From sequence record MN445184: DNA of 64,000 bases; one strand, 5' to 3'. The notes beneath the pieces were generated by a model. That model did not search any database. It saw nothing but the letters and a program-made list of their open reading frames with translations, and was not told where the DNA came from. Shown here one piece after another: positions 4,355 to 38,337 of the stretch. The translations under genes were made by a program, and so were the position numbers. This stretch comes from Escherichia phage vB_EcoA_4HA11. How positions within the stretch are numbered: the first letter of the stretch is position 1; the number at the start of each line of letters is the position of its first letter.

Positions 4355-4372
4355 CTAAACCCCATCCATCAA

Positions 4373-6216: not shown

Positions 6217-6218
6217 TC

Positions 6219-6449: not shown

Positions 6450-6450
6450 A

Positions 6451-6494: not shown

Positions 6495-6537
6495 GGAACC
6501 GTTCCCCATGAGCGGAACCTAACTGAGGATACACCAA

Positions 6538-7038: not shown

Positions 7039-7083
7039 ATAGTTACAGGGGAGGAAACTCCCCGCTTCAACCAGGAGGCGCAT

Positions 7084-7281: not shown

Positions 7282-7308
7282 TTTCACTACACACAGCAAT
7301 ACTTTGAT

Positions 7309-8390: not shown

Positions 8391-8565
8391 AATACGAAAT
8401 CATCTTAGACGCTCTCTGTATGAGAGCAATATTGTTTAATGTTGAAAGAAACCGGGTTAAGCTCTGTGTGTTCTAAGGCCACAGCTCAAACTTGTATATC
8501 TAAATTTCAGGAATGTTGGATACCAAAAGAAGATCCCGCCTGGTTGAAATTTTACGGAGATAATA

Positions 8566-10467
8566 ATGGTTGATGTAAACAGAAAATACAAAAAGCTCTC
8601 ACACATCGAGCATATACTCCTTCGCCCAGAGCGCCATCTGGGGAGTATCCGTTCTTCTGTCGGCATGGCTTGGGTATATGATCCCAGCAAAGACAAAGTT
8701 GTGTTTAAAGACAATTTTGAATATAACCCCGCCCTTATCAAACAGTTTGATGAAATCATCACCAACTGTGTTGACCACAGCAAGACCCCTGAGGGAAAAT
8801 CCCTGACGGAAATCACCATTACCATCTGCCCTATGAACGGACAGATCATCGTGGCGGATAACGGGGGTATTCCTGTGGTAAAACATGAATCTGGTATGTG
8901 GTTGCCAGAAATGTTATTTTCAGAATTGTTTGCGGGATCAAACTTCAACGACGATGACGAAGAATACAACAACCAGAAGTCCGGCGGCCAGAACGGTGAA
9001 GGGGCGTCCCTCGTCAACGTGTTCTCAAAATGGTTCCGCGTCGCGACCAGTGATGGCAAGAAGTCTTATGCTCAGCTGTTTGAAGACAACATGAGCAAGA
9101 AGTCCAATCCGGTCATCAGCAATACGCCGAAAGAGTTCGGCACCACGATTGCCTGGATCCCTGATTATGCTCGTCTGGGTGTCAAGGGGCTTGACCAGAA
9201 CAACCTGCTGATGATCTATCGCCGCGCGTTTGAAGTGGCTGCGTGTAATCCGCGCCTGAAGATTGTTCTCAACGGGAAGCAAATCCGGATTGACCGCTTT
9301 GGTCACTTCGTTGATTACTTCCATGCTGGCTCGGCTGTTGACGAAACCGGGGATTGGTCTGTTGCTGTAGCCCCTTCATCCGGTACGTTCATGCACGCAT
9401 CATACGTGAACTCTATTGCCACCCACATCGGTGGTCCTCACGTTGATTATGTTGCCGACCAGATCGTGGCAGCGATTCGTCCTCAGCTGGTGAAGAAGTT
9501 CAAGACCGAACTGAAGCCAGCAATGATCAAGAACCACATGTCCTTGTTCATCGCCGCCGACATCAACAACCCGCGCTTTGACAGCCAGACCAAGGAGCGC
9601 ATGACCACTCCTGTCAGCCAGTTCGGTACGTCGTACAAGCCCAGCGATAAACTGATCCGCAAGGCGCTTGAGTTCGTTACGGCTGGTCTGAGCAAAGAAC
9701 TGGCTTCCCTGCGCAATGAGCAGGATGGTGCTGAGTTTGAAAAGGCCAAGAAGGACATCAGCAAGCGGGATTATCGTGAGATTGAGAAGTATTACCCGGC
9801 GACCGCCCGTGGTGACCGCAGCGGATGCTCCCTGCTACTGACAGAGGGTGATAGTGCCTCCAATCCTATCCTGAACGCCCGCGACACCAAGAAGATCGGG
9901 TTGTTCCCGCTTCGTGGTAAGTTCATCAACTGCCTGAACGCCCCGCGCTCAAAGGTGATGAACAATGAAGAGTTCAAGAACCTGTGTACGATCCACGGCG
10001 GCGCAGTGCCAGGCCAGCCCCTTGATATCACCCGTTACCCACAGACTGTTGTGGCTACCGATGCGGACGATGACGGCATCCACATCCGTGGGTTGTTGAT
10101 CACCCTGTATTGCACCTACTGGCCGGAGTACGTCCGTCAGGGCAGGCTGAAGCTCCTGCGCACCCCTTACATGCGTGTGTGGTGTGGTAAGGTGATGCAT
10201 GAGTTCATGAACAACGCAGAGTATGAGGAGTTCCTGAAGACGCCTGATGCCAAGAAGATCACGAAGAAGAAATATCTGAAAGGTCTGGGTGGTAACAGCA
10301 CTGAAGACTTCAAGCGTATTCTAAACAACCTAGATGCGTATACTACGACGGTCACGCTGGACGATGGCTATCAACAGTCACTGAAGAATGGCTTCGGTGA
10401 TGAGGCCGCCGATTACCGCAAAACCTGGTTTAGCGATGTTTGTCTATTTGAAACCGAGGATGAATGA
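8566..10467 (+). CDS. DNA topoisomerase II large (ATPase, GyrB-like) subunit, gp39/gp60-like
   Basis: 633-aa ORF; N-terminus LSHIEHILLRPERHLGS, GHKL motif ADNGGIPV, TOPRIM-like EGDSA. Confidence 0.85.
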   Translation: MVDVNRKYKKLSHIEHILLRPERHLGSIRSSVGMAWVYDPSKDKVVFKDNFEYNPALIKQFDEIITNCVDHSKTPEGKSLTEITITICPMNGQIIVADNGGIPVVKHESGMWLPEMLFSELFAGSNFNDDDEEYNNQKSGGQNGEGASLVNVFSKWFRVATSDGKKSYAQLFEDNMSKKSNPVISNTPKEFGTTIAWIPDYARLGVKGLDQNNLLMIYRRAFEVAACNPRLKIVLNGKQIRIDRFGHFVDYFHAGSAVDETGDWSVAVAPSSGTFMHASYVNSIATHIGGPHVDYVADQIVAAIRPQLVKKFKTELKPAMIKNHMSLFIAADINNPRFDSQTKERMTTPVSQFGTSYKPSDKLIRKALEFVTAGLSKELASLRNEQDGAEFEKAKKDISKRDYREIEKYYPATARGDRSGCSLLLTEGDSASNPILNARDTKKIGLFPLRGKFINCLNAPRSKVMNNEEFKNLCTIHGGAVPGQPLDITRYPQTVVATDADDDGIHIRGLLITLYCTYWPEYVRQGRLKLLRTPYMRVWCGKVMHEFMNNAEYEEFLKTPDAKKITKKKYLKGLGGNSTEDFKRILNNLDAYTTTVTLDDGYQQSLKNGFGDEAADYRKTWFSDVCLFETEDE

Positions 10468-10910
10468 TGGAATATCCACTAACTCATCAGATGCAGCCAA
10501 CAAAAGACACGTGTATGTCAACGTGCCTGGCGATGTTACTTGAGCGTCCGGTCGCCGAGGTTGCTGAAATATGGCATGAAAGTTTCGCGAATTGGGAAAC
10601 CACGATTGGTGACGTTCTTTGTATGGAAGGGGTTCCGTTCTTGCAAGGGAAAGGGGTCAACCAAACTTCCACCATCTATCATGATTATGTTTATCTGCTT
10701 TGCGTGCCAAGTCCAGCAACGCCAGGATTATTGCACCAGATCATCTTAGACACTCGTCATGAAAAACTTGTTGTGTACGACCCACTGAAGGGTACTGGCA
10801 AAAGATATTACACCCTGGATGAAGACAAATCTCCTCTGGCGGTAAAACTTGAAACTTGGATTGTGGACTACATTGTCGATCCATATGAAGTGGGAGGTTA
10901 TCGTGGGTAA
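10464..10910 (+). CDS. papain-like (peptidase C39-like) cysteine peptidase domain protein
   Basis: 148-aa ORF overlapping both topo genes by 4 nt and 1 nt; HQMQPTKDTCMSTCLAMLL (Gln..Cys) and HQIILDTRHEKLVVYDP (His..Asp) resemble C39 catalytic motifs. Confidence 0.4.
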   Translation: MMEYPLTHQMQPTKDTCMSTCLAMLLERPVAEVAEIWHESFANWETTIGDVLCMEGVPFLQGKGVNQTSTIYHDYVYLLCVPSPATPGLLHQIILDTRHEKLVVYDPLKGTGKRYYTLDEDKSPLAVKLETWIVDYIVDPYEVGGYRG

Positions 10911-10911
10911 G

Positions 10912-12243
10912 ATGGTTGCCAAGAGCATTACTGTAACGGACTTTGTCAACACTGACCATAAGCAGTTTTCTGTGGTCAACAGCATCCGTCAAATCCCTCA
11001 GCTGATTGACAGCCTGAAGCCAAGCCAGCGCAAGATACTCTTCGCTGCTCTTGAATACAACAAGGAGGAGATTGTTGACCGCCTTGGCATGTTCGCCGCC
11101 GCTCGCACCAACTACAAGTCTGGTGGTGAGAACATGAGCGGCACTATCGTGAACATGGCTCAGGGGTTCCCAGGAACGAACAACATCCCGTACTTTGACC
11201 GCGATGGCCAGTTTGGTTCTATCATGGGGCGTGATGCTTCATCTGCCCGATACATATCCGTCGCTGTATCTGACGTTATCCGCAAGATCTTCCGCAAGGA
11301 GGATGAGGGTATCTTGGAATACAACTACCTTGGTGAAGAAAGGCTGGAGCCGAAGTTCTTTCTGCCCATCCTGCCCATGTTCCTGGTGAATGGGATCAAT
11401 GGTATCGGCACCGGATATTCCACCGACACCCCGTGTCATTGCGTTAAGTCCGTGCTCAGTGCCCTGAGAGCGCTTCTCCGTGGCGAAGATCCGAAAGACT
11501 TAAAACCGTACTGGAACGGCTTCAAAGGAGAGACAGGCTATACTGAGGAAGGAAGAGCATACAGTCGCGGCATCTTCCGTCGCGTCAATGCCACCACCCT
11601 GCATATCACCGAAGTCCCAGTGGGTTGGTTCGCCAAAACCTATGAGACCAAGGTGTTGCTACCTCTGTATAAGGCAGGTATCCTGACCGAGTACGCCAAC
11701 GACACGACGGAAGATGGCTGGGATATCACGGTTGTGTTTAAGCGCGGCGAACTCTCTAAGCTGAGTGACGAGCAGGTTGAGCAGATGTTCAAGCTGTATT
11801 CAGCCACCAAGCCTGTGTGGACAGCATGGGATGAAGACGGTGTTATTCATCGTTATTCTGGTTGGCGGGATATGTTGCTGCCGTTCTTCAATTATCGCCT
11901 GTCACGGTACGAAGACCGTCGCCAGTATCTGTTGAAGGACATGGCAGACAGAATTCGTAAGCTGAACAATCGTGCCCTGTTTATTGCATGGGCTGTGGTG
12001 ACTGACCTACGACGCAGTCTTGATGAGCTGAAGGCATTGTTCCAAACAGACTACCCAGACTTTGATGGTGACCTTGACGAGTTGTTCAAGATGCCTCTGT
12101 CGTCTATTACTCTGGACGCCCGTGAGCGCCTACTGAAGCAGATTGAGAACCTTGAAGCACAGCACAAGGAATTAAGTAAGAAAGAGGACATCGATCTTTA
12201 CACTGAAGACCTTGATGACCTTGAAAAGGCTCTTGGCCTATAA
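10912..12243 (+). CDS. DNA topoisomerase II medium (GyrA-like) subunit, gp52-like
   Basis: SLKPSQRKILFAAL and FDRDGQFGSIMGRDASSARYI resemble gp52/GyrA motifs; start ATG 10912 (or GTG 10903). Confidence 0.8.
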   Translation: MVAKSITVTDFVNTDHKQFSVVNSIRQIPQLIDSLKPSQRKILFAALEYNKEEIVDRLGMFAAARTNYKSGGENMSGTIVNMAQGFPGTNNIPYFDRDGQFGSIMGRDASSARYISVAVSDVIRKIFRKEDEGILEYNYLGEERLEPKFFLPILPMFLVNGINGIGTGYSTDTPCHCVKSVLSALRALLRGEDPKDLKPYWNGFKGETGYTEEGRAYSRGIFRRVNATTLHITEVPVGWFAKTYETKVLLPLYKAGILTEYANDTTEDGWDITVVFKRGELSKLSDEQVEQMFKLYSATKPVWTAWDEDGVIHRYSGWRDMLLPFFNYRLSRYEDRRQYLLKDMADRIRKLNNRALFIAWAVVTDLRRSLDELKALFQTDYPDFDGDLDELFKMPLSSITLDARERLLKQIENLEAQHKELSKKEDIDLYTEDLDDLEKALGL

Positions 12244-12247
12244 CATC

Positions 12248-12265
12248 GGAGGGGTTCGCCCCTCC
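12248..12265 (+). terminator. stable stem-loop GGAGGGG-UUCG-CCCCTCC after topoisomerase gene (terminator or RNA-stability element; no U-tract)
   Basis: perfect 7-bp stem with UUCG tetraloop 4 nt after stop. Confidence 0.35.
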
Positions 12266-12567
12266 TCACCTGGAGGGTTGTGCTATGTTCTATCTCCGTT
12301 CTGAAGCACCTATGGTATTCATCATTTCCTATTTGATTTCCTGGTTCCTCGCTTTATCAAAGAAGAGGTAGCGTTTGGTCTCTATGGTGAGACGGAAGAC
12401 CCAGAGGTCGATGAGTATTACCCAATGTGCGCCCTGAAAGATATCGAGGAAGGGGAAGATGTTGCAATGGTCGGCACCATGCGTTCTTTCAATCTGTTTG
12501 GGCTTGCACTCTTTCCGAAACTGGTTGGTGAACTGCGCCCCTACAATCCTGAAGCCGCTGTAGAGGG

Positions 12568-12885
12568 TTGATCATGCCACAGCTTCTGAGTCCTAAACTT
12601 CTGTCTATGGGTGATTCCCTGTATTTTCACTGCCCTGGATGTGATATACTTCACCCATATCGCATTAAGGGCGAAGTCCAAGGTCCGGCGTGGTCGTGGA
12701 ACAACAATGTCGTTGCTCCTACGTTCACGCCGAGCCTGCTGGTGAATGCATCTGATCTAGCATCACGTTGCCATCTGTTCCTGACCGACGGCAAAATACA
12801 ATTCCTCGGCGACTGTTTCCATGATCTGAAGAACCAGACAGTGGATATGGTCGACATCTCTGAACCTGAAATTTGGATTGAATAG
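12568..12885 (+). CDS. small Cys/His-containing protein (zinc-binding?)
   Basis: 105-aa ORF with HCPGC and CH/H pairs. Confidence 0.45.
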   Translation: MIMPQLLSPKLLSMGDSLYFHCPGCDILHPYRIKGEVQGPAWSWNNNVVAPTFTPSLLVNASDLASRCHLFLTDGKIQFLGDCFHDLKNQTVDMVDISEPEIWIE

Positions 12886-12888
12886 ATT

Positions 12889-13299
12889 ATGAAATTACTT
12901 GGATATTTTCGTGAACTCCCAACGGGAACTGAAGGCAAGTTGTTCTCACAGGTGAAGGGGGATGACATCGGTGATACGATGATTCCCCTGTACACTCGTG
13001 AACTTCCTGCCGAAGGTGCCTGGGAGCGCCGTGTGGTCGCTGCCGCCAACAAATATGGTGACGTGATCGTCGTTGCCGACCGCCACCATAGCAAATTCAT
13101 GAACAGCCAGCTCAAGATCCTGAAAGAAGCAGGCGTCATTAAATCCACCCATACCCGCGAACAGGGTTTCATCGACAACCAGGGCAACTTCCTCACTCGT
13201 GAAGAGGCATGCATCGTAGCCCGTGAAGCTGGACAGATCAATCAGGTGCGCCTGAAGACAACCCCTTTCCGCGAACTCTTTTCCGAAGACCTCTATTGA
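12889..13299 (+). CDS. hypothetical protein
   Basis: 136-aa ORF, 4 nt after previous stop. Confidence 0.5.
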   Translation: MKLLGYFRELPTGTEGKLFSQVKGDDIGDTMIPLYTRELPAEGAWERRVVAAANKYGDVIVVADRHHSKFMNSQLKILKEAGVIKSTHTREQGFIDNQGNFLTREEACIVAREAGQINQVRLKTTPFRELFSEDLY

Positions 13300-13349
13300 A
13301 GAAAAAGGCGGTATTATTACCGCCTCGACCTCTTGTTTGGTAACATCGA

Positions 13350-13592
13350 ATGAGCCCAGAATTTGAAAACCTGTTCGAGCGATGCTTCGAACCAGGTTCT
13401 GTGTCCGGTTACATGGACCGCCTTTGCACTGCCATTGTAATACGCCTTGCTGCCAAGGGTATCGTTGTCAACACCATTATCCGCAATGGGAACAACTTTA
13501 TCATGCAGATGACTGATTATCACCGCCGCACAGGCATCATCCAGGTGTCATGTGTTGACAACAGCATTATTGAATGGAGACAGTACGCATGA
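13350..13592 (+). CDS. hypothetical protein
   Basis: 80-aa ORF. Confidence 0.4.
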   Translation: MSPEFENLFERCFEPGSVSGYMDRLCTAIVIRLAAKGIVVNTIIRNGNNFIMQMTDYHRRTGIIQVSCVDNSIIEWRQYA

Positions 13593-14188
13593 CAACCTAT
13601 GTAATCAATGGCGGCGATTTACTGAAAGCCGCCTGTAGTTTCAATCTGATCGACATCTTTGCCCACGGTGCCAACTGTTGGTCTACCATGGGCGCGGGTA
13701 TTGCCCTGCACATCGGCAACAACTTCCCAGCGCTGCGCGAAGTCGATGCGAACGACCCTCGTGGTCCAGAGCAACGCCTGGGTGGCATGTCCTATGCATT
13801 TGACCACAGCACTGGTGTCTGGGGTGCGAACCTCTACACTCAGTTTTATCCAGGTCCGAACGCTCGCATGCCGTCTGTCATCAGTTCTGTTCAGATGTTG
13901 TTTGAGCAGGTTCACGAAATTGTGGAAGCAACTAAAGACGAAACTGTCTATGTCGGACTGCCTGCTATCGGCTGTGGTATTGGTGGTCTGAACCTCTACA
14001 GTGTAGTGCGCCATATCAATCGAATCTCTGAAAGCGTGTATGAAGAGACCCGCCGTCGTGTCGTCCCAGTCTTCTATATCAGGGAAGGAGACGGATTCGA
14101 TGATGATCTGATGGAACTTTCCCATCTGGACACAGAAGGTATCATGATTGTCGAAGATGAGCAAGAAATCATCGACGAGGAGGGGTGA
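13589..14188 (+). CDS. macro domain protein (ADP-ribose binding/hydrolase fold)
   Basis: ATG 13589 with GGAGA RBS; motifs AHGANCWSTMGAGIALHI and GLPAIGCGIGGL match macro-domain glycine-rich loops; acidic C-tail. Confidence 0.55.
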   Translation: MTTYVINGGDLLKAACSFNLIDIFAHGANCWSTMGAGIALHIGNNFPALREVDANDPRGPEQRLGGMSYAFDHSTGVWGANLYTQFYPGPNARMPSVISSVQMLFEQVHEIVEATKDETVYVGLPAIGCGIGGLNLYSVVRHINRISESVYEETRRRVVPVFYIREGDGFDDDLMELSHLDTEGIMIVEDEQEIIDEEG

Positions 14189-14191
14189 ATA

Positions 14192-14443
14192 ATGATGTGT
14201 GCGTTTGATCAAGAATTTTATAAAAAGGTCAATATTCTAAAACTTGTCATGTCTGGATCTAGTTCGAAAGAAGTATCAGAAATTTATTGTATTTCACAGG
14301 CCAGGGTGAGCCAGATTTTGAGGGAAACTATAGGGTTACTTTGCCCAGAGATAGAAATTAAGCGCGTCAACAAAAAGTTCATTGATGAAAATTATTATAC
14401 AGTAAAAGCCAAAATAAAGTGTTGGGAGAATAAACATGTATAA
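14192..14443 (+). CDS. small HTH DNA-binding protein
   Basis: 83-aa ORF; SSKEVSEIYCISQARVSQILRE helix-turn-helix. Confidence 0.5.
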   Translation: MMCAFDQEFYKKVNILKLVMSGSSSKEVSEIYCISQARVSQILRETIGLLCPEIEIKRVNKKFIDENYYTVKAKIKCWENKHV

Positions 14444-15068
14444 ATCAAATTTTTTGGCTGTGGCCGACAGTGAAACCTTGGGGCGCTGGGATGATGCAGT
14501 CATGCTGTCTTGGGCACACACCATCGCTGACCTGACCAAGCGTTATACTCTTCAGCAGCTGGTTGAGGAGCGCACGACGTTCATTAAGCTGAATGTCAAA
14601 GAGCAGCTCGAACTTGGTCGCGTGAAGGACGCTGGGACGGTAGAATGGTGGTTGGGGGCGGGCAAGCGCAACCCGTGTGATGCGGCTCGCGCCGTCAGTC
14701 TGTACCCGACTGAGCAGGACATCTCTATCTTCCAGCTGGCCGATGAAATCCGCAAGGGTTGTCATCGTCTTGGGGTAGACCCGCGCTCGGTTGACTGGTG
14801 TGATCGCAACCTGTTTGATCTGCGCAAGGCTCAGCACATCATTGAGGTGACGTGTAAGCAGGACTCCAACGAGCCTTGGGATTACCACCACACCTTCGAC
14901 ATCGTGAGCTGGCTGAAGGGTGTTGGGCAACAGGATCGCTACGCTGGTATCAAGGCGTGGGAACTGGAAGGTATGGTCTATCACGACCCTCGTTATGACG
15001 CTGCGCTTGACTGGCTGCGTATTCAGAAGACCATGGAAGATCTGATGGGGCTGGAGGTTGTGGGGTGA
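14436..15068 (+). CDS. DEDD-family 3'-5' exonuclease (DexA-like)
   Basis: FLAVADSETLG (Exo I D-x-E) and C-terminal YHDPRYD motif. Confidence 0.5.
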   Translation: MYKSNFLAVADSETLGRWDDAVMLSWAHTIADLTKRYTLQQLVEERTTFIKLNVKEQLELGRVKDAGTVEWWLGAGKRNPCDAARAVSLYPTEQDISIFQLADEIRKGCHRLGVDPRSVDWCDRNLFDLRKAQHIIEVTCKQDSNEPWDYHHTFDIVSWLKGVGQQDRYAGIKAWELEGMVYHDPRYDAALDWLRIQKTMEDLMGLEVVG

Positions 15069-15367
15069 TTGTATTCACTGTCATCGGTGTGATCGTAACA
15101 GCTGGGGTATTCACAGCCATATTGGGCTACCTGTACTTCATGTTCCTTCATCCGTTATTTCAGGCGTTCAGTCTCACGAATTGGTACTTGGCCTGCCTAA
15201 AGGCCGACGGCGGCGTGAACATGGCCTCTCTTCCTTACTGGCGGCTGGTGGCGCATTACTACTCGGTCGGTGGCTGGCCTGGGGAAAGGACATGGAACTC
15301 TATCGGTGAGTGGTATGGAATAGGTCGATGGCGTATATTCCCTGATGAAGACGATCAAGCCCCGTGA
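15065..15367 (+). CDS. membrane protein
   Basis: 100-aa ORF with N-terminal transmembrane helices. Confidence 0.45.
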   Translation: MIVFTVIGVIVTAGVFTAILGYLYFMFLHPLFQAFSLTNWYLACLKADGGVNMASLPYWRLVAHYYSVGGWPGERTWNSIGEWYGIGRWRIFPDEDDQAP

Positions 15368-15378
15368 GGGCTTTTCTA
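15357..15378 (+). terminator. hairpin AAGCCCCGTGAGGGCTT + TTTC overlapping stop
   Basis: inverted repeat followed by T-run. Confidence 0.5.
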
Positions 15379-15430
15379 TATCCGGGATAGAGTATCATTG
15401 GTTCACCAACGAATCCTCGGGAGAGGCGAT

Positions 15431-15772
15431 ATGAAACGTTCAGTTGTTGTAAATGACATCACGAGATTGATAAACCTTGTCAAAGATGTGTTTCCACAAC
15501 AGGTGGATGTCGAGTATGTTGGGAAGAACGGAAAGTGTTATCAGGTTGCTCTGTTGTTGAAGCACGTGTACCCCCAAGCAGAGATCCATTACAGTCAGAT
15601 TGAAGGCCATGTGTATACTCTGATTGATGGGAATTATTACGACATCGACGGCATCCACTTCAGTGTCCCACCAGACACGTGTTTGCTCGAACATAATAGA
15701 GGCCACAAACCCCATCGCTGGCATAAAGGGTTTGTGAACGTACCGATTTTAGAATGGCTGAGGAAACCATAA
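15431..15772 (+). CDS. hypothetical protein
   Basis: internal ATG 15431 after GGGAGAGG RBS. Confidence 0.45.
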
Positions 15773-16332
15773 TGGCCGGAATTGTAAAGTACCTGGGTGA
15801 CACCCACCTCGGACACAAGAAGATCTTCAAGCCCCGTGGGTTCGACACACAGGAAGCCCACGACGCTGCGGTCATCGACAGTATCTTTCAGGGGCTGAAG
15901 TCTCGAGACGTCCTTGAACTGGCTGGGGACATCTGCTTCATCGGGGCTGAGGGGTTCATTCGCCTGATGCGGGAGGGTGCCAAGCGAAACATTGATGAGT
16001 TTAAGCGACGCCCCGTTCCCGATGACTGGCGTCCGAACTTTATCATCAAGGTGGCACAAGGCAACCATGACAGCTTTAAGATGTTGTTGTCTCTGTATCT
16101 GGACGGCTGGATTAGCTCCTTCGGCGCTATGTATGAACGTGACACGCCTGTTGGCCGTGTGTTGACAACACATGTTCCTTATCAATTAGACCGTTGGGCG
16201 TATAATATCCATGGTCATCTTCACGAAAATATTCGCGAAGAGCGCGAATACCTGAACTGCAGTTGGGAACAATTCAAGCGTCCTGTAACCCTGGCTGAGT
16301 TATTATACACAAATTTAGGAATTGTGTTATGA
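15772..16332 (+). CDS. calcineurin-like metallophosphoesterase
   Basis: GDTHLG, GNHD and HGHLH motifs; ATG 15772 after GAGGAA. Confidence 0.6.
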
Positions 16333-17413: not shown

Positions 17414-17817
17414 AACGTTATCGCCTGAAGTTTGAGTTAACTCGAAGGGAAGACAACGAACTCATATATGGGGAAATTTTCATATATGATCCTTATGATA
17501 CGGAATACACTGAATGGCTGAAGATAATATTGGCTGGTGAAGTCGATAAAGTATACCGTGCCATTGAAAAGGACGCCAAAGGAGTATTAAGTTTTGGTCA
17601 TCTTCGAGTCGCGGCCATGATTGGTTCAGCTTTAGAAATAGTGTCTGAAGCGTTAGCCATAGATCTACCAGGGGAACATATCTTCATCCGTGAATCTAAA
17701 GTTGATATGGCAACGAATTATGTGATGAAATTGACCTTGACAGAAAATATGGAAAATAACAAACCAAGCATTTTCCGCCGTTTCATGAACAAATTAAAGG
17801 GTGTTAAAAATGATTAA
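17410..17817 (+). CDS. hypothetical protein
   Basis: 135-aa ORF. Confidence 0.4.
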   Translation: MKRYRLKFELTRREDNELIYGEIFIYDPYDTEYTEWLKIILAGEVDKVYRAIEKDAKGVLSFGHLRVAAMIGSALEIVSEALAIDLPGEHIFIRESKVDMATNYVMKLTLTENMENNKPSIFRRFMNKLKGVKND

Positions 17818-18328
17818 ACCACGTATGATGTTCGCCCATATGCGATCAGCTGCAGCATATGGTGTAACCAGTTATGCTCGGCGTCTGCAAGTCGGTTGTG
17901 TTATCGTAAACCCTGAAACTGATCAGCCTGTGGCTATCGGATGGAACGGAACGCCTCCTGGTATGCCGAATGTTTGTGAGATGGAACAACACGGGCAAAT
18001 TGTTACAAACCCGTGTGTCATTCATGCGGAGGAAAATGCTCTAATGCGTATCCCCGAAAATGCAGATGATTTCACAGGGTTGGTTATGTTTGTGACACAT
18101 AGCCCATGCCCTGATTGCACTCAGAAGATCATCGACAACGGCAAGATCGATAAAGTATATTATCAAGAGCCATATCGTATCATGGATGGAATCAAAAGAT
18201 TGATGAACGCCGGAATTGAAGTTTACCGGATGGTGGGCGATATGGCGATCCTTAAACACGTTTTCGACGATCAAGGCGAAGTCGGATACGAACAAATCTT
18301 ATCCAACCCAGACAAAGTAAGGAATTAA
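17810..18328 (+). CDS. cd: dCMP deaminase
   Basis: zinc-binding deaminase motifs HAEENAL and PCPDC. Confidence 0.8.
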   Translation: MIKPRMMFAHMRSAAAYGVTSYARRLQVGCVIVNPETDQPVAIGWNGTPPGMPNVCEMEQHGQIVTNPCVIHAEENALMRIPENADDFTGLVMFVTHSPCPDCTQKIIDNGKIDKVYYQEPYRIMDGIKRLMNAGIEVYRMVGDMAILKHVFDDQGEVGYEQILSNPDKVRN

Positions 18329-30839: not shown

Positions 30840-32192
30840 TTAACCGAAATTCCAATTATTCACGGTCTCGGCTTTCTTGACATCATTTACGTCGCCTGTT
30901 TTGTTTAAGTCATGTTTGATATGAACATTCTCAACATAACGGGCTTCCTCTTCTGTCAGGTCTCGCTTGACTTCATTCCAATCCAAGTCAAACAATATCT
31001 GTTTATCTTGATCCATACCGAACAAGAACGATTTGAGTTTCTGTTTATTGGCATAACGGTTTTTCAAGATAGACGCTCGGGCTTTCTTAACAGCCGCCAG
31101 TTCATCAGGGGCATAGAACGCCATGATGAAGTCTGCAACCTTCGGAATACCGATAGCATCTGCCAGGTCGCTAATATCACCATCAGTCGCCGATTGTTTT
31201 TCACGGTTAAATTGCATACCTGTCCATACAGGGCAATCAAATTCAAATCCAAGCGCACGGAATTCACGCGCCACCGACGTATAATACACGTTGGTGTTCT
31301 GCATTAAATGGGCAGGAAGGCGAGAAGACGCTGATTCACCCAAGTAGTCTATAATAATGACGTCCGGCGTAATTCCCGTGGATGTCGCGTAATCAAGGAT
31401 ATCGCGGCGATACAGTCCTGTATGCCCAGCGCCTGAAGGATATTCCTTGATAACAATATCACCCTTCATGGAACCGTCTTGACGGGTTCGCAACTTTTGT
31501 ATCGTAGCGACATATTCATGTCGTGAGAGCTTCTCTAAGGACTCGAAGTCCCTGCGCATCATACGGGCATCAAGGCGGTGACGCCAGACGTTCTCAGCCA
31601 CTTCTAGGGTAAATACGAATACGTTCAACCCTTGCTCGGAGTAACCAGCAGCCAAATCAATCAGAGTTGTTGTCTTACCCGCATTAATTGCACCCGTCAC
31701 GATGTTCAGCGTTTTCTTACCAACACCACCACGAGTCGCTTTGTTGAATATCTCTACAGCGAAAGGAATCTTCGCTTCATTAGAGTTCATGTGGTCGTAT
31801 TGTTGTTCAGCCATTTCCCAATAGATATGGCCAAGATAAGAATCAAAACTTATCGCCAACGCCTCTTGTAGGAGAGTTGGAATCGTGTTCATCTCATCTT
31901 TACGTTTCTCATCACCATAGATGTTGACGGCGTGTTTGATCGCATTATGAACAGCTTTCTGCCGCGCCCAACTTTCTGTTTCTTTTACAAGCCATTCCTG
32001 ATGGAATGTGTTGTCATTGATATTCTCAAGAGCAGAAATAGCTTGTTCAAATACGTGTTCGTTGAGCGAAGTCTTTTCCAGCATAATAGACAACGCTTCA
32101 ACCGAAGGACGAGCATTATATTCGCAAGTGTAATGGTCAATGAGACCGAATATAATTTTCTCGCCTTCGTTATCGAAATAATCGGCTTTCAA
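30840..32192 (-). CDS. DnaB-like replicative helicase gp41, main body (N-terminus displaced by tandem duplication)
   Basis: Walker A GAINAGKTT; ORF begins at a non-ATG codon inside the duplicated segment. Confidence 0.8.
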   Translation of the reverse strand: MKADYFDNEGEKIIFGLIDHYTCEYNARPSVEALSIMLEKTSLNEHVFEQAISALENINDNTFHQEWLVKETESWARQKAVHNAIKHAVNIYGDEKRKDEMNTIPTLLQEALAISFDSYLGHIYWEMAEQQYDHMNSNEAKIPFAVEIFNKATRGGVGKKTLNIVTGAINAGKTTTLIDLAAGYSEQGLNVFVFTLEVAENVWRHRLDARMMRRDFESLEKLSRHEYVATIQKLRTRQDGSMKGDIVIKEYPSGAGHTGLYRRDILDYATSTGITPDVIIIDYLGESASSRLPAHLMQNTNVYYTSVAREFRALGFEFDCPVWTGMQFNREKQSATDGDISDLADAIGIPKVADFIMAFYAPDELAAVKKARASILKNRYANKQKLKSFLFGMDQDKQILFDLDWNEVKRDLTEEEARYVENVHIKHDLNKTGDVNDVKKAETVNNWNFG

Positions 32193-32201
32193 ATACGGCT
32201 G
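31885..32201. repeat. 317-bp direct repeat, copy 1 (inside helicase gene)
   Basis: identical to 32202..32518 by inspection. Confidence 0.8.
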
Positions 32202-32587
32202 GTGTTCATCTCATCTTTACGTTTCTCATCACCATAGATGTTGACGGCGTGTTTGATCGCATTATGAACAGCTTTCTGCCGCGCCCAACTTTCTGTTTCT
32301 TTTACAAGCCATTCCTGATGGAATGTGTTGTCATTGATATTCTCAAGAGCAGAAATAGCTTGTTCAAATACGTGTTCGTTGAGCGAAGTCTTTTCCAGCA
32401 TAATAGACAACGCTTCAACCGAAGGACGAGCATTATATTCGCAAGTGTAATGGTCAATGAGACCGAATATAATTTTCTCGCCTTCGTTATCGAAATAATC
32501 GGCTTTCAAATACGGCTGGATCTTTCTTTGATATTCTTCGTTATAGATTAATTGGGAAAGCACGACAGATTCGAGTAACATTGGCAA
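32189..32587 (-). pseudogene. gp41 helicase N-terminal fragment (true start plus first copy of duplicated segment, ends 3 codons after junction)
   Basis: residues KADYFDN..KDEMNT identical to start of main ORF, then SRI-stop. Confidence 0.7.
32202..32518. repeat. 317-bp direct repeat, copy 2 (perfect tandem)
   Basis: identical to 31885..32201; period not a multiple of 3. Confidence 0.8.
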
Positions 32588-32917: not shown

Positions 32918-33980
32918 TATCGAGGCGCTCCAGCATATCTGCAGGCATAACCGAACTCTGAGAGATACCGAACATGTTGTTCACATCGTCAACAAAGTCT
33001 GGGTTTTCCAGCAACGGATACCAGAAGTCATCCCCCAGCTCTGCCTTACGATATTTCTTTTCTTTTTCTGGATCAAACCCGCCTTTGGCAGTACGTTGAT
33101 ACCAAGAACCACTCACCAAATCCACATACCCCAGCATGCGCGCAATTTCTAACATACCGGACCAACGGTCAATACCGCCTTCATACAACACAGTGACAGG
33201 GAACTTGGCTTTTTCACGGACAAAGCGGCCTTTCATAATGTTGACTGTAAACTGCCATCCCAAAAGGTCTTTGTCTTCTTTTACTTGAGAACGCGTGATG
33301 AACCACAATTGGTTAGAAGACAGGAACCCCTGTTTACCGCCTTTGATGTTCGGCTCGGCGTATTGGTTCCCGATTTCATCATAGTACGAGTTGATCCATA
33401 CCAAAACGAATTTCTTTTCAGTGACCAACGGGGTGATAACACGCCAAAAACTATTGAGAGCGCGAGCGCGGGTCATATCTTGTGTGTCTTTGCCCGCGAT
33501 GGCATCATCAACTTCTTTGGTAGACGGCAACTGGCTGATTGAGTCAATGAATACGATGATCTTGTCACCTTTCTGAGCATCATTCAGAAGCTGTGTCAGT
33601 TTGATCTTCGTCTTTTCAACGTTTTCAATCGGCAGATACAAGACACGGTCCATGTCAATACCCATAGATGTCCAGTAGTTTTCATTCGCACCGCCTTCTG
33701 AATCCGCGAAGATACAAATTGCATCAGGAAACTTATCCATGTAAGCCTTAACATCCACCAGCCCAAACATGGTTTTGAATGTACGAGAATCCCCCACCAA
33801 CTGTTTGATGCCTGATATCAGACCACCATCAATACGACCGGACCAGGCCAAATTCAGAATAGGAATACCCGTACTGCAAATAATGTCAGGCTTCAGCGCA
33901 TCGGTCTTTGACAGCACTTCGGCATTCGGGTCCAGTTTCTTTGCTGTCTTGAGCATGCGAGCCATCAATGAATCGGCCAT
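32895..33980 (-). CDS. uvsX: UvsX RecA-like recombinase
   Basis: 361 aa; RecA-fold pattern; adjacent to gp41 as in T4. Confidence 0.8.
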   Translation of the reverse strand: MADSLMARMLKTAKKLDPNAEVLSKTDALKPDIICSTGIPILNLAWSGRIDGGLISGIKQLVGDSRTFKTMFGLVDVKAYMDKFPDAICIFADSEGGANENYWTSMGIDMDRVLYLPIENVEKTKIKLTQLLNDAQKGDKIIVFIDSISQLPSTKEVDDAIAGKDTQDMTRARALNSFWRVITPLVTEKKFVLVWINSYYDEIGNQYAEPNIKGGKQGFLSSNQLWFITRSQVKEDKDLLGWQFTVNIMKGRFVREKAKFPVTVLYEGGIDRWSGMLEIARMLGYVDLVSGSWYQRTAKGGFDPEKEKKYRKAELGDDFWYPLLENPDFVDDVNNMFGISQSSVMPADMLERLDNVIKTTE

Positions 33981-34495
33981 TTCGTTTCCTCTTGCTTGTT
34001 GATCGTAATTAATAAATCGGTGCCCAAGACTTTCTTGGACAATATATTGATTGCTTCGTGAATCGCCATTATTGACGGGAGTTTTTCATCGTTAATTTCG
34101 GAACCCCCGCGTTCTGTTAAATACATATTACGCAGACGATTGTGCTGTGCCCTGTTGACACAAGAAACATTCAATGCGATATTCAGGATATACATCATTT
34201 GTTCAGTTGTAACATCCTTTGGAATAGCATGAACATAATATATCGCATCTTCAAAATAGATATGCTGCAATGACTCTGGAATTTCTTCCCCGCCAAAAGC
34301 AAAATCTTCAATGCGTTTAAAAAGTGTTTCCGGCTCTGGTGTTGTAATATGTTGTGTTACAGTAGCCGCACCATTTGGCCCTTTCTTGAAATTGGTCGCA
34401 ATAACGACATGACCGCCTGGTTTAATAAACTCAGCGAAGTTCTCTGCCATGTACGGGGCATGTTCCGCATAATATGATACGACGACTGTAAACAT
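33965..34495 (-). CDS. hypothetical protein (occupies position of T4 beta-glucosyltransferase; no glycosyltransferase motif seen)
   Basis: 176-aa ORF; FIKPGGHVVIA motif of unclear significance. Confidence 0.4.
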   Translation of the reverse strand: MFTVVVSYYAEHAPYMAENFAEFIKPGGHVVIATNFKKGPNGAATVTQHITTPEPETLFKRIEDFAFGGEEIPESLQHIYFEDAIYYVHAIPKDVTTEQMMYILNIALNVSCVNRAQHNRLRNMYLTERGGSEINDEKLPSIMAIHEAINILSKKVLGTDLLITINKQEETKWPIH

Positions 34496-35040
34496 TAGAA
34501 CTCCAGAGTCAGAGGGGTTTCGGCAGACTTGTCATAGTTCGCACCGCCAGCAGCACGTAGACGATTGCGATCGTTCTTGCGCTTGTGCGCCAGCATGTAG
34601 GTTTCGGCATCCAGTCCCAAATAACCACAAGCATACGCAAGGAAAGCAGCCAGCACATTGCGCTCTGGATGAGACATAAAATGCGTAAACAGATTTGTCA
34701 CATGGAGGAAATCTGGCTTTCTCTGAATAGGTTGGTCAGACACATAACCCGTCATGTCGTACATATCATGCGGCTCTGCTTCTTTTTGTATAACGGCACA
34801 CAGCATGAAGTGGACAACATCGACCAATTCATAGACTGCATTAACTTGGTGCCATTGCTGATCATTTCCATAGATCTTCCAACTGGTCGAAACTTCATCA
34901 AGAAATTCCGCCCACTCGCGGTAGATGGAATTCGCCACCGCTACATCGGTCCAATACTTCTTCCACTCTTCCCCAAAATAGGCCACGTTGGTGGCCTTTT
35001 GAAGTTCGAGCAGATTTTTGATATGCTCTGCTGTGATCAT
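34495..35040 (-). CDS. all-alpha (MazG-like) dNTP pyrophosphatase, gp56 dCTPase/dUTPase-like
   Basis: 181 aa; helical, acidic metal-binding-like segments and C-terminal KRKNDRNRLR pattern similar to recalled T4 gp56. Confidence 0.45.
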   Translation of the reverse strand: MITAEHIKNLLELQKATNVAYFGEEWKKYWTDVAVANSIYREWAEFLDEVSTSWKIYGNDQQWHQVNAVYELVDVVHFMLCAVIQKEAEPHDMYDMTGYVSDQPIQRKPDFLHVTNLFTHFMSHPERNVLAAFLAYACGYLGLDAETYMLAHKRKNDRNRLRAAGGANYDKSAETPLTLEF

Positions 35041-35621
35041 TTCCGATCCCTATAAAATTTGACGAATGGTTGCCAACCTTCAAATGGGTTAACAAATTCA
35101 TAATCAACTTCCATCTTATCAATGAAAGCCTCAATGTCATCCTCTATGATACCACCGCGATCCGCCTTTGAAATGCGGGTGATGGGACATTTAGTGCTCA
35201 GCGCCCATTCATATTCCTGAGGGGTGCGCAAATCACTCACGATATAATGAACGTGTGGGTTCTGCTCCACCAAAGGAAGTTGATATCGTTTAAAGAATGA
35301 CAGGAACAGGTCTGGTTGTACATAACGCAAGCCCGTATCGCTGCCCAGATGAAGCCAGATCTGCCGTGGGGTTAAGCCCTTGGGGTTATCAGGGTGTACG
35401 AATGGAACGTCCTTCACAGCATCCTCCACCTCCGCTGGTAGCCATGGGTAGATGAAATTGGCGACACGTCGCAGTTCATCTGAGAAAGACAGACGACGAA
35501 TATCCTTATCACCCTGAATATGATGAAAACTGATCAGGGACTCCAAACAGAAGTCCTTGCCGGAGCGCTTGCGCCCCGTGAAGAATTCAAGGTTCTGGTA
35601 CATCATTCGCCATACCCCCAC
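35037..35621 (-). CDS. deoxynucleoside monophosphate kinase (gp1-like)
   Basis: N-terminal GRKRSGKD matches T4 gp1 GVKRSGKD P-loop. Confidence 0.6.
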   Translation of the reverse strand: MGVWRMMYQNLEFFTGRKRSGKDFCLESLISFHHIQGDKDIRRLSFSDELRRVANFIYPWLPAEVEDAVKDVPFVHPDNPKGLTPRQIWLHLGSDTGLRYVQPDLFLSFFKRYQLPLVEQNPHVHYIVSDLRTPQEYEWALSTKCPITRISKADRGGIIEDDIEAFIDKMEVDYEFVNPFEGWQPFVKFYRDRK

Positions 35622-36646
35622 ATAAATTTCTGATCAACAGGGGAATGCAGTAATGCAGTACGAAGACCGTCATCAGCGATACGGCGTTTGTCAATTTTGG
35701 TATCATTGAGGCGACACCACAGGCAATATGACATATCCATCATCAATCCCGTGTCTGCTTGATATCCTTTCAGATGTTCTCTGATTTTACCAAAATCACT
35801 GCCGATGTCACAGTGATGTAACACGCCGAGGAATAGATTACAAATATCTTTTTGCGACTTCACTTTTTCTGAAGAGAATTCCAGCAAAGAATTGTACATC
35901 CCAGAAGAAGTTTTGGTCTTCTTAGTGATACCCCCGAGTTGTTTCCGACTAACTTCATTGTTGTAATAATGAAGATTGTTAGAAAACAGTTTGTAATACC
36001 CAACTTCGACATTCAGCACTTTCGCCAGAACTTCTTGCAGGATAGAGAATTCAATGAAATTGATTGAACTCATGCCCCACAAGACATCTTGGCTGCGGTT
36101 AATGACAGTGATATTCAATCGCCCTTCTGTTATACTGAACAATAGAGCAAGATTACAGATCATGTCCTTGGTCTTGGCTTCTCCAGTTTCACTATGGGCG
36201 GCCAAACCTTCATCTGAGTCCAGCGCCGGATCATAGATGGTGAGATACGCCTGACGGGTGTTGGGATTATTACGCAGACGGCTGATGACACTATCCAACT
36301 GGCCATTATTGTACAGACGTGGGCCATACGCGCCTCGCCAGGTTACACCGTCATCAGAGAAGTTGGCGGCGCGGGGTAAGACTTTCGAAAGGAAACGGAT
36401 ATCATTACGTCCGGACAACACCCAGAATGTCTCACCGATGGCAGCAATTGCCGACGAGTTGCGGCCTTCAACGGAAAGCCAACGGTCACGTGGATCTGAT
36501 ACTGTAATTGTTACACCATCAATGAAACGAGTGCCGTCAGTGTTAATCTCTGCGTTGCCAGGATCTGACTCAATGCCGTGTTCACGGATGGCCAACACAG
36601 CCTTCTTCAGCATATCATTATTGTTTAAAGCAAAAATTTCCATCAA
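35603..36646 (-). CDS. thymidylate synthase-fold deoxypyrimidylate hydroxymethylase (gp42-like, unusually long)
   Basis: 347 aa; NRSQDVLWGMSSINFIEF matches TS-family block QRSxDxxLGxPFNIASY; candidate catalytic Cys in DMICNLA; no LPPCH motif; YLTIYDP resembles gp42 IMIYTRP. Confidence 0.6.
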   Translation of the reverse strand: MMEIFALNNNDMLKKAVLAIREHGIESDPGNAEINTDGTRFIDGVTITVSDPRDRWLSVEGRNSSAIAAIGETFWVLSGRNDIRFLSKVLPRAANFSDDGVTWRGAYGPRLYNNGQLDSVISRLRNNPNTRQAYLTIYDPALDSDEGLAAHSETGEAKTKDMICNLALLFSITEGRLNITVINRSQDVLWGMSSINFIEFSILQEVLAKVLNVEVGYYKLFSNNLHYYNNEVSRKQLGGITKKTKTSSGMYNSLLEFSSEKVKSQKDICNLFLGVLHHCDIGSDFGKIREHLKGYQADTGLMMDMSYCLWCRLNDTKIDKRRIADDGLRTALLHSPVDQKFMWGYGE

Positions 36647-37317
36647 TCAATACTCCCAAAATCACGATTGAGAAACGCAAAAACAGCCTGCTCTATAGTC
36701 AGGCCATTGGACTTCATCATACCTGCGGGAACGGTAGGGAACAAGCCTTTATGCCGTTGGCGGTGGTCATGAACTCTCTCCCACTTTTCGACAACCAGGC
36801 TTTCATTGAAGTCTGCGCCGCCGTTGCGTGATTTCACACGGGAAACACAGGTTTCAAGCGGGGTGTCCATGAAGAGCACGACTAATTCGCGCGGTGGGCG
36901 CGTCAGGCGGGGAATCCATGAGCTGAGCAAAGTTGAAGGGATGATTCCTTCAAACAACACGTCATATTTCAGATATTCCGGCTGATCAGCAATGGACAAG
37001 GCGAACAACATCTGCTCGGTATCTTTCAGGGAATCAACACCTTTAGACTTAGACTTGTCATATTTACCAATACAGATAATGTTATAGGAAGGGCAAACTG
37101 TGAGCATGATCTTGCCATTGTAGGTCACGACATACGCCTGAGGATCATTCTCCGCCAGATAGGAAGGGACAGTGGACTTGCCGCTACCGTTGGAGCCTTT
37201 AACGTAATACAACTCTCCTCGTGCCGGATATTCCCCTTCGACAGCAGGTGGTTTTACAAATAGATGTACGGGGCGCTTCAACAACCCTTTGAGCGAATAC
37301 GACATGGTGTGCTCCAA
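36643..37317 (-). CDS. P-loop kinase (candidate 5-hydroxymethyl-pyrimidine DNA kinase or extra nucleotide kinase)
   Basis: 224 aa; Walker A GSNGSGKST; translationally coupled to hydroxymethylase gene. Confidence 0.55.
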   Translation of the reverse strand: MEHTMSYSLKGLLKRPVHLFVKPPAVEGEYPARGELYYVKGSNGSGKSTVPSYLAENDPQAYVVTYNGKIMLTVCPSYNIICIGKYDKSKSKGVDSLKDTEQMLFALSIADQPEYLKYDVLFEGIIPSTLLSSWIPRLTRPPRELVVLFMDTPLETCVSRVKSRNGGADFNESLVVEKWERVHDHRQRHKGLFPTVPAGMMKSNGLTIEQAVFAFLNRDFGSID

Positions 37318-37377
37318 TAAACAAAAGGAGCTGCTATTATAGCAGCCCCTTCATCTATTGAATGCTTCTGAATTAAA

Positions 37378-38337
37378 TTACGCAGCAGCTTTCGCTTCGG
37401 CCAACGCCTGTGGCAACCATTCATTGATTGCTTTCACCAGAGATTCGGCATCAGTTTCTTTGATTTTCTGGCGTTTGGTGAATGATTTACCATTCACATA
37501 CAGACTGAACCCCCAGCCGCCGGAAACGATCGGCGCCAGATCAACATAAGTATTGGTGCGGGCGTGTGGATTGGCTTCATCTGCCAGTTCGGTAACAGGG
37601 AACTGGAACCAGCGCATATCCGGATTCACATAGCTCAAATAAACCCCAGGCACAACCCCCGATTCAACCGCAGCCAGGATAGGACCATAATTGGATGCGC
37701 GAGCCGCTTCAACCATTTCTTCACGCTTGTTATGACGACGCTTGCGTTCTTCGGTAGAAGATGCAGGGCGCATTTCAGAAGATTTCTTGGCCAGAACCGC
37801 CTTCGCGTTCGCTAAAGCCTGATCATCCTTCGGATTTTCAACGTCGGCGATTGCTTCAGCAACGGTTGTGCCCAGCATACGACGGCGAACTTCTTCAGCA
37901 CGGGCTTGCGCTTCTTCGTCAAGAACTTCTTCGCCTTCAACTACCAGGGAAATGGAACCGTCTTTGTTGACTTCAAGAGAACCGTCTTCGACGGTCTGGG
38001 AATTTTGATCACCGACAGGTTGCCCAACCGTTTCTTCGGCGTCAATCACCGGATTTGATTCACCGTCGCCCTGTTTAACCCCCGCATCTTCGGTCGGTTT
38101 AACTTTTTCGGCTTCAGCGCGGTCAAGAGCTTCGAGAGTCTCTTCTTTCTCTTCCTGGCTCAGACCTTCAATGAGTTCAAAGCCGTTGGCTGACTGGAGG
38201 ACGCCTTCCATCATACGGCGTAACGTGACGTTGCCGATGATAAGGTCTGCACCTTTGATTTCTGCTTGAAGATCAGCAGCGGTTTTACCATCAATTTCAA
38301 ATTTCAGGCCGGACTCGATATGAAGAATATAGGACAT
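37378..38337 (-). CDS. acidic hypothetical protein
   Basis: 319 aa with long Glu/Asp-rich low-complexity region. Confidence 0.5.
   Translation of the reverse strand: MSYILHIESGLKFEIDGKTAADLQAEIKGADLIIGNVTLRRMMEGVLQSANGFELIEGLSQEEKEETLEALDRAEAEKVKPTEDAGVKQGDGESNPVIDAEETVGQPVGDQNSQTVEDGSLEVNKDGSISLVVEGEEVLDEEAQARAEEVRRRMLGTTVAEAIADVENPKDDQALANAKAVLAKKSSEMRPASSTEERKRRHNKREEMVEAARASNYGPILAAVESGVVPGVYLSYVNPDMRWFQFPVTELADEANPHARTNTYVDLAPIVSGGWGFSLYVNGKSFTKRQKIKETDAESLVKAINEWLPQALAEAKAAA

Follow-up and report, generated by a model that had tools for sequence, protein, structure and literature searches.

A described ViI-like gene block for 5-hmdUTP synthesis and in-DNA phosphorylation in Escherichia phage vB_EcoA_4HA11

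A compact set of minus-strand genes in Escherichia phage vB_EcoA_4HA11 raises the question of which pyrimidine of the phage DNA is replaced, and how far the modification proceeds. The window, which is the whole stretch of DNA analysed (64 kb of sequence record MN445184), comes from a ViI-like Kuttervirus, and its DNA is about 95-98% identical to that of phages ViI, PhaxI, and Mutine. The gene block is the one described in ViI-like phages (Kuttervirus) for 5-hmdUTP synthesis and subsequent phosphorylation in DNA; such a block is usual in this phage family, and the whole system has already been published for ViI and CBA120 (Kutter 2011; Lee 2018; Lee 2021). Very probably, its genes make the nucleotide precursor for ViI-type thymidine hypermodification and perform the first step of that pathway at the level of DNA. 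A sequence-only reading had proposed an enzyme set for a 5-hydroxymethyl pyrimidine, which proved correct, and the module is a pre-replicative one. The matches of the proteins to PF00303, PF08761, phrog_139, and PF00383, given below, greatly exceed what chance would produce.

All open reading frames of the block are present on the minus strand, in the order 5-hmdU DNA kinase, hydroxymethylase, dNMP kinase, gp56-family pyrophosphatase, and ACT-like gene. Each overlaps the next start-to-stop (junctions TGATG, ATGA, ATGA, and TAATG, respectively), and a 16-nt overlap leads on into uvsX. The translational coupling that had been noticed for three of these genes is confirmed by the overlap junctions and extends to five genes plus uvsX. 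Start codons were refined by comparison with the ViI orthologues, giving 35603-36643 for the hydroxymethylase (346 aa, where the earlier 35603..36646 had given 347 aa), 35037-35606 for the dNMP kinase (189 aa), and 36643-37305 for the 5-hmdU DNA kinase (220 aa). A terminator-like hairpin on the minus strand (37324-37352), which was found by consensus scan and from the sequence and has a stem of 13 pairs and, after it, a T-rich tail, lies just upstream of the kinase start and probably delimits the block on that side. As well, a sigma-70 promoter scan returned 14 candidates against 9.5 ± 3.4 in shuffled sequence, which is not above expectation, and was left unused.

The most telling gene of the block is the first one (36643-37305, minus strand), which encodes a 5-hydroxymethyl-dU DNA kinase (5-HMUDK). 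The coordinates of the sequence-only reading took in 36643-37317, but its text gave no description of this gene, which was thus overlooked. The protein matches PF18748 (HMUDK_HMUD1) over the full length of the profile (positions 1-196 of 196; E 1.7e-116, 387 bits against a cut-off of 27), carries a P-loop, GSNGSGKS, at residue 37, and is 99.5% identical over 220 aa to its ViI orthologue gp67 (Vi01_061c, YP_004327432), which has been shown biochemically to phosphorylate 5-hmdU in DNA (PMC8989533).

The second gene (35603-36643, minus strand) encodes a predicted dUMP hydroxymethylase with a thymidylate synthase (TS) fold and a C-terminal helical domain, and is the orthologue of ViI Vi01_060c, annotated "thyA", with 100% identity over 346 aa. 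It matches PF00303 (E 1e-14) and contains the family block NRSQDVLWGMSSINFIEF at residue 182, as had been stated from the sequence; the absence of the LPPCH motif was likewise borne out, and the catalytic Cys lies within DMICN. Residues C163, E71, R183, D186, H225, and Y227 are invariant in both alignments. The AF2 model (pLDDT 93.9) gave a Foldseek probability of 1.00 to TS structures and to those of MilA, the CMP 5-hydroxymethylase of Streptomyces (PDB 5b6d, 5jnh; PMC5175136). MilA is the best match among solved structures in sequence (1e-17) as well as in fold, and its alignment spans the whole protein, the C-terminal helical domain with it (TMq 0.73-0.75, about 349 columns), while TS structures align with the core alone (about 240-270 columns, TMq about 0.5). 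The extra residues, about 100 in number, correspond to this helical domain common to MilA. The protein had been called oversized, which does not hold, because SPO1 gp29 has 383 aa, MilA has 325 aa, and most homologues listed have 320-390 aa, so that its size is normal for the clade. It falls among the "long" pyrimidine hydroxymethylases of the SPO1-gp29/MilA type.

Along with MilA, the enzyme closest to it is SPO1 gp29, a known deoxyuridylate hydroxymethylase (Wilhelm & Ruger 1992; X60728), which shares with it the TS fold, the catalytic Cys, the replacement of the TS Trp motif by FSDDG, an Asn at the uracil position after the same one-residue insertion, and a long C-terminal extension. They differ in their PHROG assignment (phrog_3676 against phrog_5131), their C-terminal domains are without BLAST-detectable similarity, and in SPO1 the base remains 5-hmdU. 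According to the specificity rule established with MilA, Asn indicates uracil and Asp cytosine, while Ser and Arg indicate deoxyribose, where MilA has Ala176 and Lys133 for ribose (PMC5175136). In the phage enzyme this position is N195, with a conservation of at least 90% across 43 homologues; E. coli (N177) and SPO1 likewise have Asn there, whereas T4 gp42 (D179) and MilA (D186) have Asp; the deoxyribose positions are S184 in NRSQD and R130 in NTRQA. These residues point to dUMP as the substrate, with Asn195 indicating uracil and Ser184 and Arg130 deoxyribose. From homology and the chemistry of the DNA product, we infer that the enzyme converts dUMP, CH2-THF, and H2O to 5-hmdUMP and THF.

Two other readings of this protein have to be weighed against dUMP hydroxymethylation. 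In GenBank and RefSeq annotation it would be an ordinary thymidylate synthase, and the block would just boost the supply of dTTP, which agrees with the Pfam match, with the label "thymidylate synthase" on related records, and with ViI DNA, which still carries thymidine at about 60% of its T positions. However, it reaches at most 52.9 bits against NCBIfam TS equivalog cut-offs of 108 to 405 (327 for the best-scoring model), its folate-site motif IWDEW (Trp80/Trp83) is changed to FSDDG as in SPO1 gp29 and MilA, and a TS-type C-terminal lid is absent. Moreover, SPO1 gp29 is closer to it than any TS by 30 orders of magnitude, 3H-thymidine is not incorporated by CBA120, and the adjoining kinase acts on 5-hmdU in DNA. 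A canonical TS, which the sequence-only reading had also disfavoured, was ruled out by the scores far under the cut-offs and by the missing Trp motif and lid, and the dTTP-supply reading as a whole is very improbable.

The sequence-only reading had leaned instead towards a T4 gp42-like dCMP hydroxymethylase, by which the phage would modify cytosine. Synteny with T4 uvsX, beta-gt, and 42 speaks for this, and so does the nearest solved structure, that of MilA, which hydroxymethylates cytosine nucleotides. The likeness to gp42 is not upheld by BLASTP, in which T4 gp42 gave E 3e-5 over just 99 aa while SPO1 gp29 gave E 5e-35 (35% identity); the family of gp42 itself, phrog_160, is the third-best match. 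With Asn as the specificity residue, where cytosine enzymes carry Asp, and such weak similarity to gp42, this candidate was ruled out, and the modified base is thymine/uracil rather than cytosine. In addition, ViI DNA has normal dC plus a modified dU derivative, and the window encodes a dCMP deaminase feeding dUMP. The chance that the enzyme acts on dCMP and the phage modifies cytosine is very low.

Downstream of the predicted dUMP hydroxymethylase, the dNMP kinase gene (35037-35606, minus strand) has an ATGA overlap at each end and a product 100% identical to Vi01_059c, "dnk". As had been suggested from its P-loop GRKRSGKD (at residue 11; GVKRSGKD in T4 gp1), the protein is gp1-like, belonging to the deoxynucleoside monophosphate kinase family phrog_139 (E 3.3e-48), to which T4 gp1 also belongs (1.8e-65). 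Pairwise similarity to T4 gp1 is limited to the P-loop; no match to PF21448 (DNMK) was obtained at E ≤ 0.01, where T4 gp1 scores 3e-107, and a PDB sequence search returned nothing useful. Its substrate is probably 5-hmdUMP.

The next gene (34495-35040, minus strand) encodes an NTP pyrophosphatase of the all-alpha dimeric-dUTPase family, in agreement with the gp56-like assignment made earlier. It matches PF08761 (dUTPase_2; E 4e-11, 43.8 bits against a cut-off of 22.9), which is matched by T4 gp56 too, and phrog_173 (E 2.4e-40, compared with 5.8e-39 for T4 gp56), and has weak PDB matches to dimeric dUTPases of C. jejuni and trypanosomatids. The enzyme would convert dUTP, possibly also dTTP, to the monophosphate, and a dTTPase activity was proposed by Kutter 2011 (PMC3184105). 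It is 100% identical to that of phage PM10 and 84% to Vi01_058c, with a range of 61%-100% among kutterviruses; because of this variability, its substrate range could differ from that in ViI. For ViI itself, homology is the only basis on which the papers cited here assign roles to the hydroxymethylase, dNMP kinase, and pyrophosphatase, and the substrates given here for their counterparts in the window are likewise predictions from homology and residues.

Outside the block, a dCMP deaminase that would supply dUMP is encoded on the plus strand at 17810-18328 (ATG at 17810), as reported from the sequence; it matches PF00383 (E 5e-17) and is 95% identical to Vi01_030. In the proposed pathway, this deaminase and the gp56-family pyrophosphatase would provide dUMP, and the latter would probably also clear dUTP, possibly dTTP, from the pool. 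Cys163 of the TS-fold enzyme would attack C6 of dUMP, a methylene would be taken from CH2-THF, and the exocyclic methylene would be hydrated, not reduced, to yield 5-hmdUMP. The dNMP kinase would then form 5-hmdUDP and host NDP kinase 5-hmdUTP, from which the phage polymerase would insert 5-hmdU in place of T. The 5-hmdU DNA kinase would transfer phosphate from ATP to the hydroxymethyl group within DNA, giving 5-PmdU, and the pathway would be completed by enzymes that ViI encodes outside the span of the window, namely the serine:DNA transferase gp247 and the PLP-dependent decarboxylase gp226. The end product would be 5-(2-aminoethoxy)methyl-dU (5-NeOmdU), replacing about 40% of T, with no glucosylation; the earlier suggestion that the final modification may not be glucosylation agrees with the ViI pathway, which ends in 5-NeOmdU.

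This scheme follows previous studies. The activities of gp67, gp247, and gp226 have been shown experimentally; the full ViI pathway was set out by Lee 2021 (PMC8989533); the co-occurrence of 5-HMUDK with dUMP hydroxymethyltransferase and the replacement of about 40% of T by 5-NeOmdU were reported by Lee 2018 (PMC5889632); and the TS, dNMP kinase, and dUTPase set of CBA120, together with the lack of 3H-dThd incorporation, was described by Kutter 2011 (PMC3184105). Compared with ViI and CBA120, the genes, their order, and their overlaps are the same, the proteins are 84-100% identical, and the DNA kinase has the tested gp67 as its orthologue (PMC3184105, PMC5889632, PMC8989533). Differences are at the allele level only, and include a pyrophosphatase of PM10 type, not of ViI type, and a duplication in a helicase gene.

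SPO1 leaves its base as plain 5-hmdU, and whether this phage might do likewise depends on the late steps. No match to ViI gp160, gp161, gp226, gp243, or gp247 was found by tblastn in the 64-kb window, and Kutter 2011 had first proposed hmdU without further modification of the phiW-14 type (PMC3184105), both of which would fit such an ending. The ViI late-enzyme genes, however, are located at 140-152 kb, outside the span homologous to the window, so their absence from the window says nothing about the genome; orthologues of gp160, gp226, gp243, and gp247 are assumed to be present from family-wide conservation. Furthermore, gp67, of which the window holds a near-identical copy, is known only for activating 5-hmdU so that it can be substituted further, and LC-MS found 5-NeOmdU in every ViI-like phage examined (ViI, CBA6, CBA120, 1.255.O, and phiHS2). 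An ending at plain 5-hmdU is very improbable, and hypermodification is the preferred reading.

The last gene of the block (33965-34495, minus strand) is coupled to the others and has no assigned step. The order here is uvsX, ACT-like gene, pyrophosphatase, dNMP kinase, and TS-fold gene, against uvsX, (segA), beta-gt, and 42 in T4, which bears out the remark that 33965-34495 holds the T4 beta-gt position. A glycosyltransferase at this position was ruled out, as neither a family nor a fold signal was found, in line with the motif search of the sequence-only reading, and a weak ACT resemblance appeared instead. The sole Pfam match is PF24021 (ACT_phage, E 4e-86). Residues 1-100 of the AF2 model are confident, with beta-alpha-beta-beta-alpha-beta order, and the C-terminal half is of low confidence; the fold search gave weak ACT-domain matches (E ≥ 1.8e-3, none ≤ 0.001), and a PDB sequence search gave no match. 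In the phage collection searched, homologues occur in 273 phage records, from enterobacterial Ackermannviridae only, and in all listed rows with an annotated region the gene has uvsX on one side and the dUTPase-like gene on the other, both of which it overlaps here. No homologue was found in the ViI-like Vibrio phages, though at least one of them (1.255.O) also makes 5-NeOmdU, which argues against an essential pathway role. From position and fold class, there is a slight chance that the protein works with the nucleotide module as a sensor of small ligands, for instance setting the amount of 5-hmdUTP, or is involved in the appearance of unmodified T in DNA made with 5-hmdU, a step still unexplained.

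The T4 hmC pathway (gp42, the dCTPase/dUTPase gp56, and gp1) follows the same logic, in which a TS-fold hydroxymethylase is combined with a pyrophosphatase and a dNMP kinase. The block also shares with T4 the PHROG families of gp56 and gp1 and the syntenic position of the genes next to uvsX. In T4, however, the target is C, where here it is U/T, gp42 is a short form of 246 aa with Asp179, and the post-replicative chemistry is glucosylation, while in ViI-type phages it runs from phosphorylation through serine transfer to decarboxylation. Thymidine hypermodification shields the DNA of ViI-like phages against many restriction enzymes, which is relevant to phage therapy and to laboratory DNA handling. 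The practical value of the present analysis is in annotation: the "thymidylate synthase" genes of ViI-like phages are predicted dUMP hydroxymethylases, and the RefSeq "terminase small subunit" adjoining the hydroxymethylase gene is a 5-hmdU DNA kinase.

Finally, the helicase-gene duplication, which lies near the block in the window, is a tandem duplication of 317 bp.

All of the ORFs named in the sequence-only reading are present on the minus strand, and the motifs it quoted were found in the window proteins. The block contains a TS-fold gene (35603-36646, minus strand; PF00303, E 1e-14), a dNMP kinase gene (35037-35621, minus strand; phrog_139, E 3e-48) and a pyrophosphatase gene (34495-35040, minus strand; PF08761 dUTPase_2, E 4e-11), and a dCMP deaminase is encoded at 17810-18328 (PF00383, E 5e-17). 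After comparison with the orthologues of Salmonella phage ViI, starts were placed at 37305 for a further kinase gene, 36643 for the TS-fold gene and 35606 for the dNMP kinase. Start/stop overlaps run along the whole block, namely TGATG between the kinase and TS-fold genes, ATGA at both the TS-fold/dNMP kinase and dNMP kinase/pyrophosphatase junctions, and TAATG between the pyrophosphatase and an ACT-like gene, which overlaps uvsX by 16 nt. Translational coupling was thus rightly proposed, but it involves five genes and uvsX rather than three genes. A strong terminator-like hairpin (37352-37324, 13 pairs followed by a T-rich tail) is located just upstream of the first gene, that of the kinase. 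Its loop reads TATAAT, and it lies between the kinase start and the stop of a gene (37378-38337) for a 319-aa acidic protein of unknown function (phrog_3905).

The gene at 36643-37305, which is key to the block and was overlooked in the earlier account, encodes a 5-hmdU DNA kinase according to PF18748, matched over the whole profile (E 1.7e-116). Its product is 99.5% identical to Vi01_061c (YP_004327432), the gp67 of ViI. Lee et al. (PMC8989533) demonstrated that 5-hmdU within DNA is phosphorylated by gp67, and reconstituted 5-NeOmdU with gp67, gp160, gp226, gp243 and gp247 together. In the RefSeq re-annotation of ViI and many relatives, the orthologue of this kinase is called "terminase small subunit", which is the label of phrog_800; in ViI the true small terminase is Vi01_162c, adjoining the large terminase.

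The TS-fold protein is 100% identical to Vi01_060c. A canonical thymidylate synthase is contradicted by the best NCBIfam TS equivalog, which gives 52.9 bits where its cut-off demands 327, and by the folate site, where IWDEW is absent and FSDDG stands in its place, as in SPO1 gp29 and MilA. The previously favored cytosine-directed, gp42-like enzyme proved incorrect as well: T4 gp42 is matched by BLASTP with E 3e-5 over 99 aa, whereas SPO1 gp29, the classical deoxyuridylate hydroxymethylase, shows 35% identity over 214 aa (E 5e-35), and the second-best PHROG is the family of SPO1 gp29 itself. According to the residue rules for pyrimidine and sugar choice in the MilA structure paper (PMC5175136), the pyrimidine-specifying position is Asn195, at least 90% conserved among 43 diverse homologues; Asn is also found here in E. 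coli TS (N177) and SPO1 gp29, unlike the Asp of T4 gp42 and MilA. The sugar determinants, Ser184 and Arg130, are those of deoxyribose-preferring enzymes, while MilA has Ala and Lys. The enzyme is predicted to act on dUMP, since these three residues, read by the MilA rules, and the conservation of Asn195 point to this substrate.

The supposed oversize of this enzyme is not unusual. SPO1 gp29 has 383 aa and MilA 325 aa, and lengths of 320-390 aa prevail among the 120 homologues listed. An AlphaFold model built with 43 sequences (pLDDT 93.9, pTM 0.93) has a helical C-terminal domain after the TS core; with Foldseek, the whole chain aligned to MilA (~349 columns, TMq 0.73-0.75), while canonical TS structures matched the core alone (TMq ~0.5). 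In MilA, which shares this domain, the five-helix region is distant from the active site and required for solubility (PMC5175136). Given the homologue sizes and the full-length MilA fold match, the extra length is a clade feature rather than an anomaly.

The pyrophosphatase and T4 gp56 both match phrog_173 and PF08761; among solved structures, dimeric dUTPases come closest, with weak matches. The dNMP kinase and T4 gp1 have phrog_139 and the G-x-KRSGKD P-loop in common, but the window protein gave no match to Pfam DNMK. The pyrophosphatase may be presumed to make dUMP and possibly destroy dTTP, and the dNMP kinase to phosphorylate 5-hmdUMP; exactly these roles were proposed for CBA120, which does not incorporate 3H-thymidine (Kutter et al., PMC3184105). 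The dUTPase-like gene (34495-35040) is also a local divergence hot spot. It shows 84% identity to ViI, 100% to phage PM10 and merely 61-65% to most kutterviruses, while both flanking genes are 100% identical to ViI, suggesting from these comparisons an allelic exchange confined to this gene. ViI possesses a second MazG-like pyrophosphatase, orf00161 (Vi01_131c), adjoining gp160 (aGPT-Pplase1), in a region outside the span covered by the window.

In the proposed pathway, dUMP would be supplied by the dCMP deaminase and pyrophosphatase, converted to 5-hmdUMP by the hydroxymethylase and raised to 5-hmdUTP by the dNMP kinase and host NDP kinase; 5-hmdU would then be put into DNA by the polymerase and phosphorylated to 5-PmdU by the DNA kinase. 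In ViI, serine is added via its hydroxyl group by gp247 and decarboxylated by gp226 (PMC8989533), yielding 5-(2-aminoethoxy)methyl-dU at ~40% of T positions (PMC5889632). The late pathway genes have no match inside the 64-kb window, and the ViI copies sit at 87-89 kb and 140-152 kb. The assignment to 5-hydroxymethyl pyrimidine supply, with a TS-fold hydroxymethylase, a gp56-family pyrophosphatase and a gp1-family dNMP kinase, is upheld, and the end product in ViI agrees with the suggestion of a modification other than glucosylation.

T4 has the order uvsX, (segA), beta-gt, 42, which bears out the synteny remark of the sequence-only reading, and the beta-gt slot in the window (33965-34495) indeed holds no glycosyltransferase: it is filled by a PF24021 ACT_phage protein (E 4e-86). 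The model is confident for residues 1-100 only, a beta-alpha-beta-beta-alpha-beta unit whose fold matches are ACT domains, weak ones (best E 1.8e-3). Homologues were found in 273 phage records, in enterobacterial Ackermannviridae alone, and in all listed matches with the region annotated the gene is flanked by uvsX and the dUTPase-like gene.

The finding as a whole is already known. By 2011 the module was on record for CBA120, ViI and AG3 (Kutter, PMC3184105). The 2018 paper (Lee, PMC5889632) reported that kinase and hydroxymethylase are associated and what the modified base is, and the 2021 paper (Lee, PMC8989533) the enzymology; a family review and a 2026 preprint present it as a standard Ackermannviridae feature. 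Overall, the sequence-only reading made a sound observation and was right on module type and non-glucose product, but not on cytosine and gp42, nor in passing over the kinase.

Megablast of 33900-37400 matched 269 phage records, the best at 95-97% identity and including ECML-4, Vi01, PhaxI, Maynard and PS5; a 25-kb stretch of the window shows ~98% identity to Mutine and PhaxI. Judged by these matches, the source is a ViI-like phage (Ackermannviridae, Kuttervirus), and collinearity with Vi01 extends from roughly 1.5 to 65 kb. GC is ~0.49-0.51 across 1-16000 and 0.42-0.47 after. Products encoded in the high-GC part are subunits of a type II topoisomerase (8566-10467 and 10849-12243), an HTH protein and one with an Ig domain; a 918-aa ORF without Pfam match begins exactly at base 1.

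Finally, a perfect 317-bp tandem duplication (31885-32201 and 32202-32518) lies within the gp41-type replicative helicase gene, where it shifts the frame and leaves two ORFs, 30840-32192 and 32189-32587, in place of one. None of the ten best-matching related phage records has it, their stretch measuring 1084 nt instead of 1401, and with one copy taken out the helicase again reads as a single ORF of 476 aa. The duplication probably arose in assembly or re-circularisation and is not biological.
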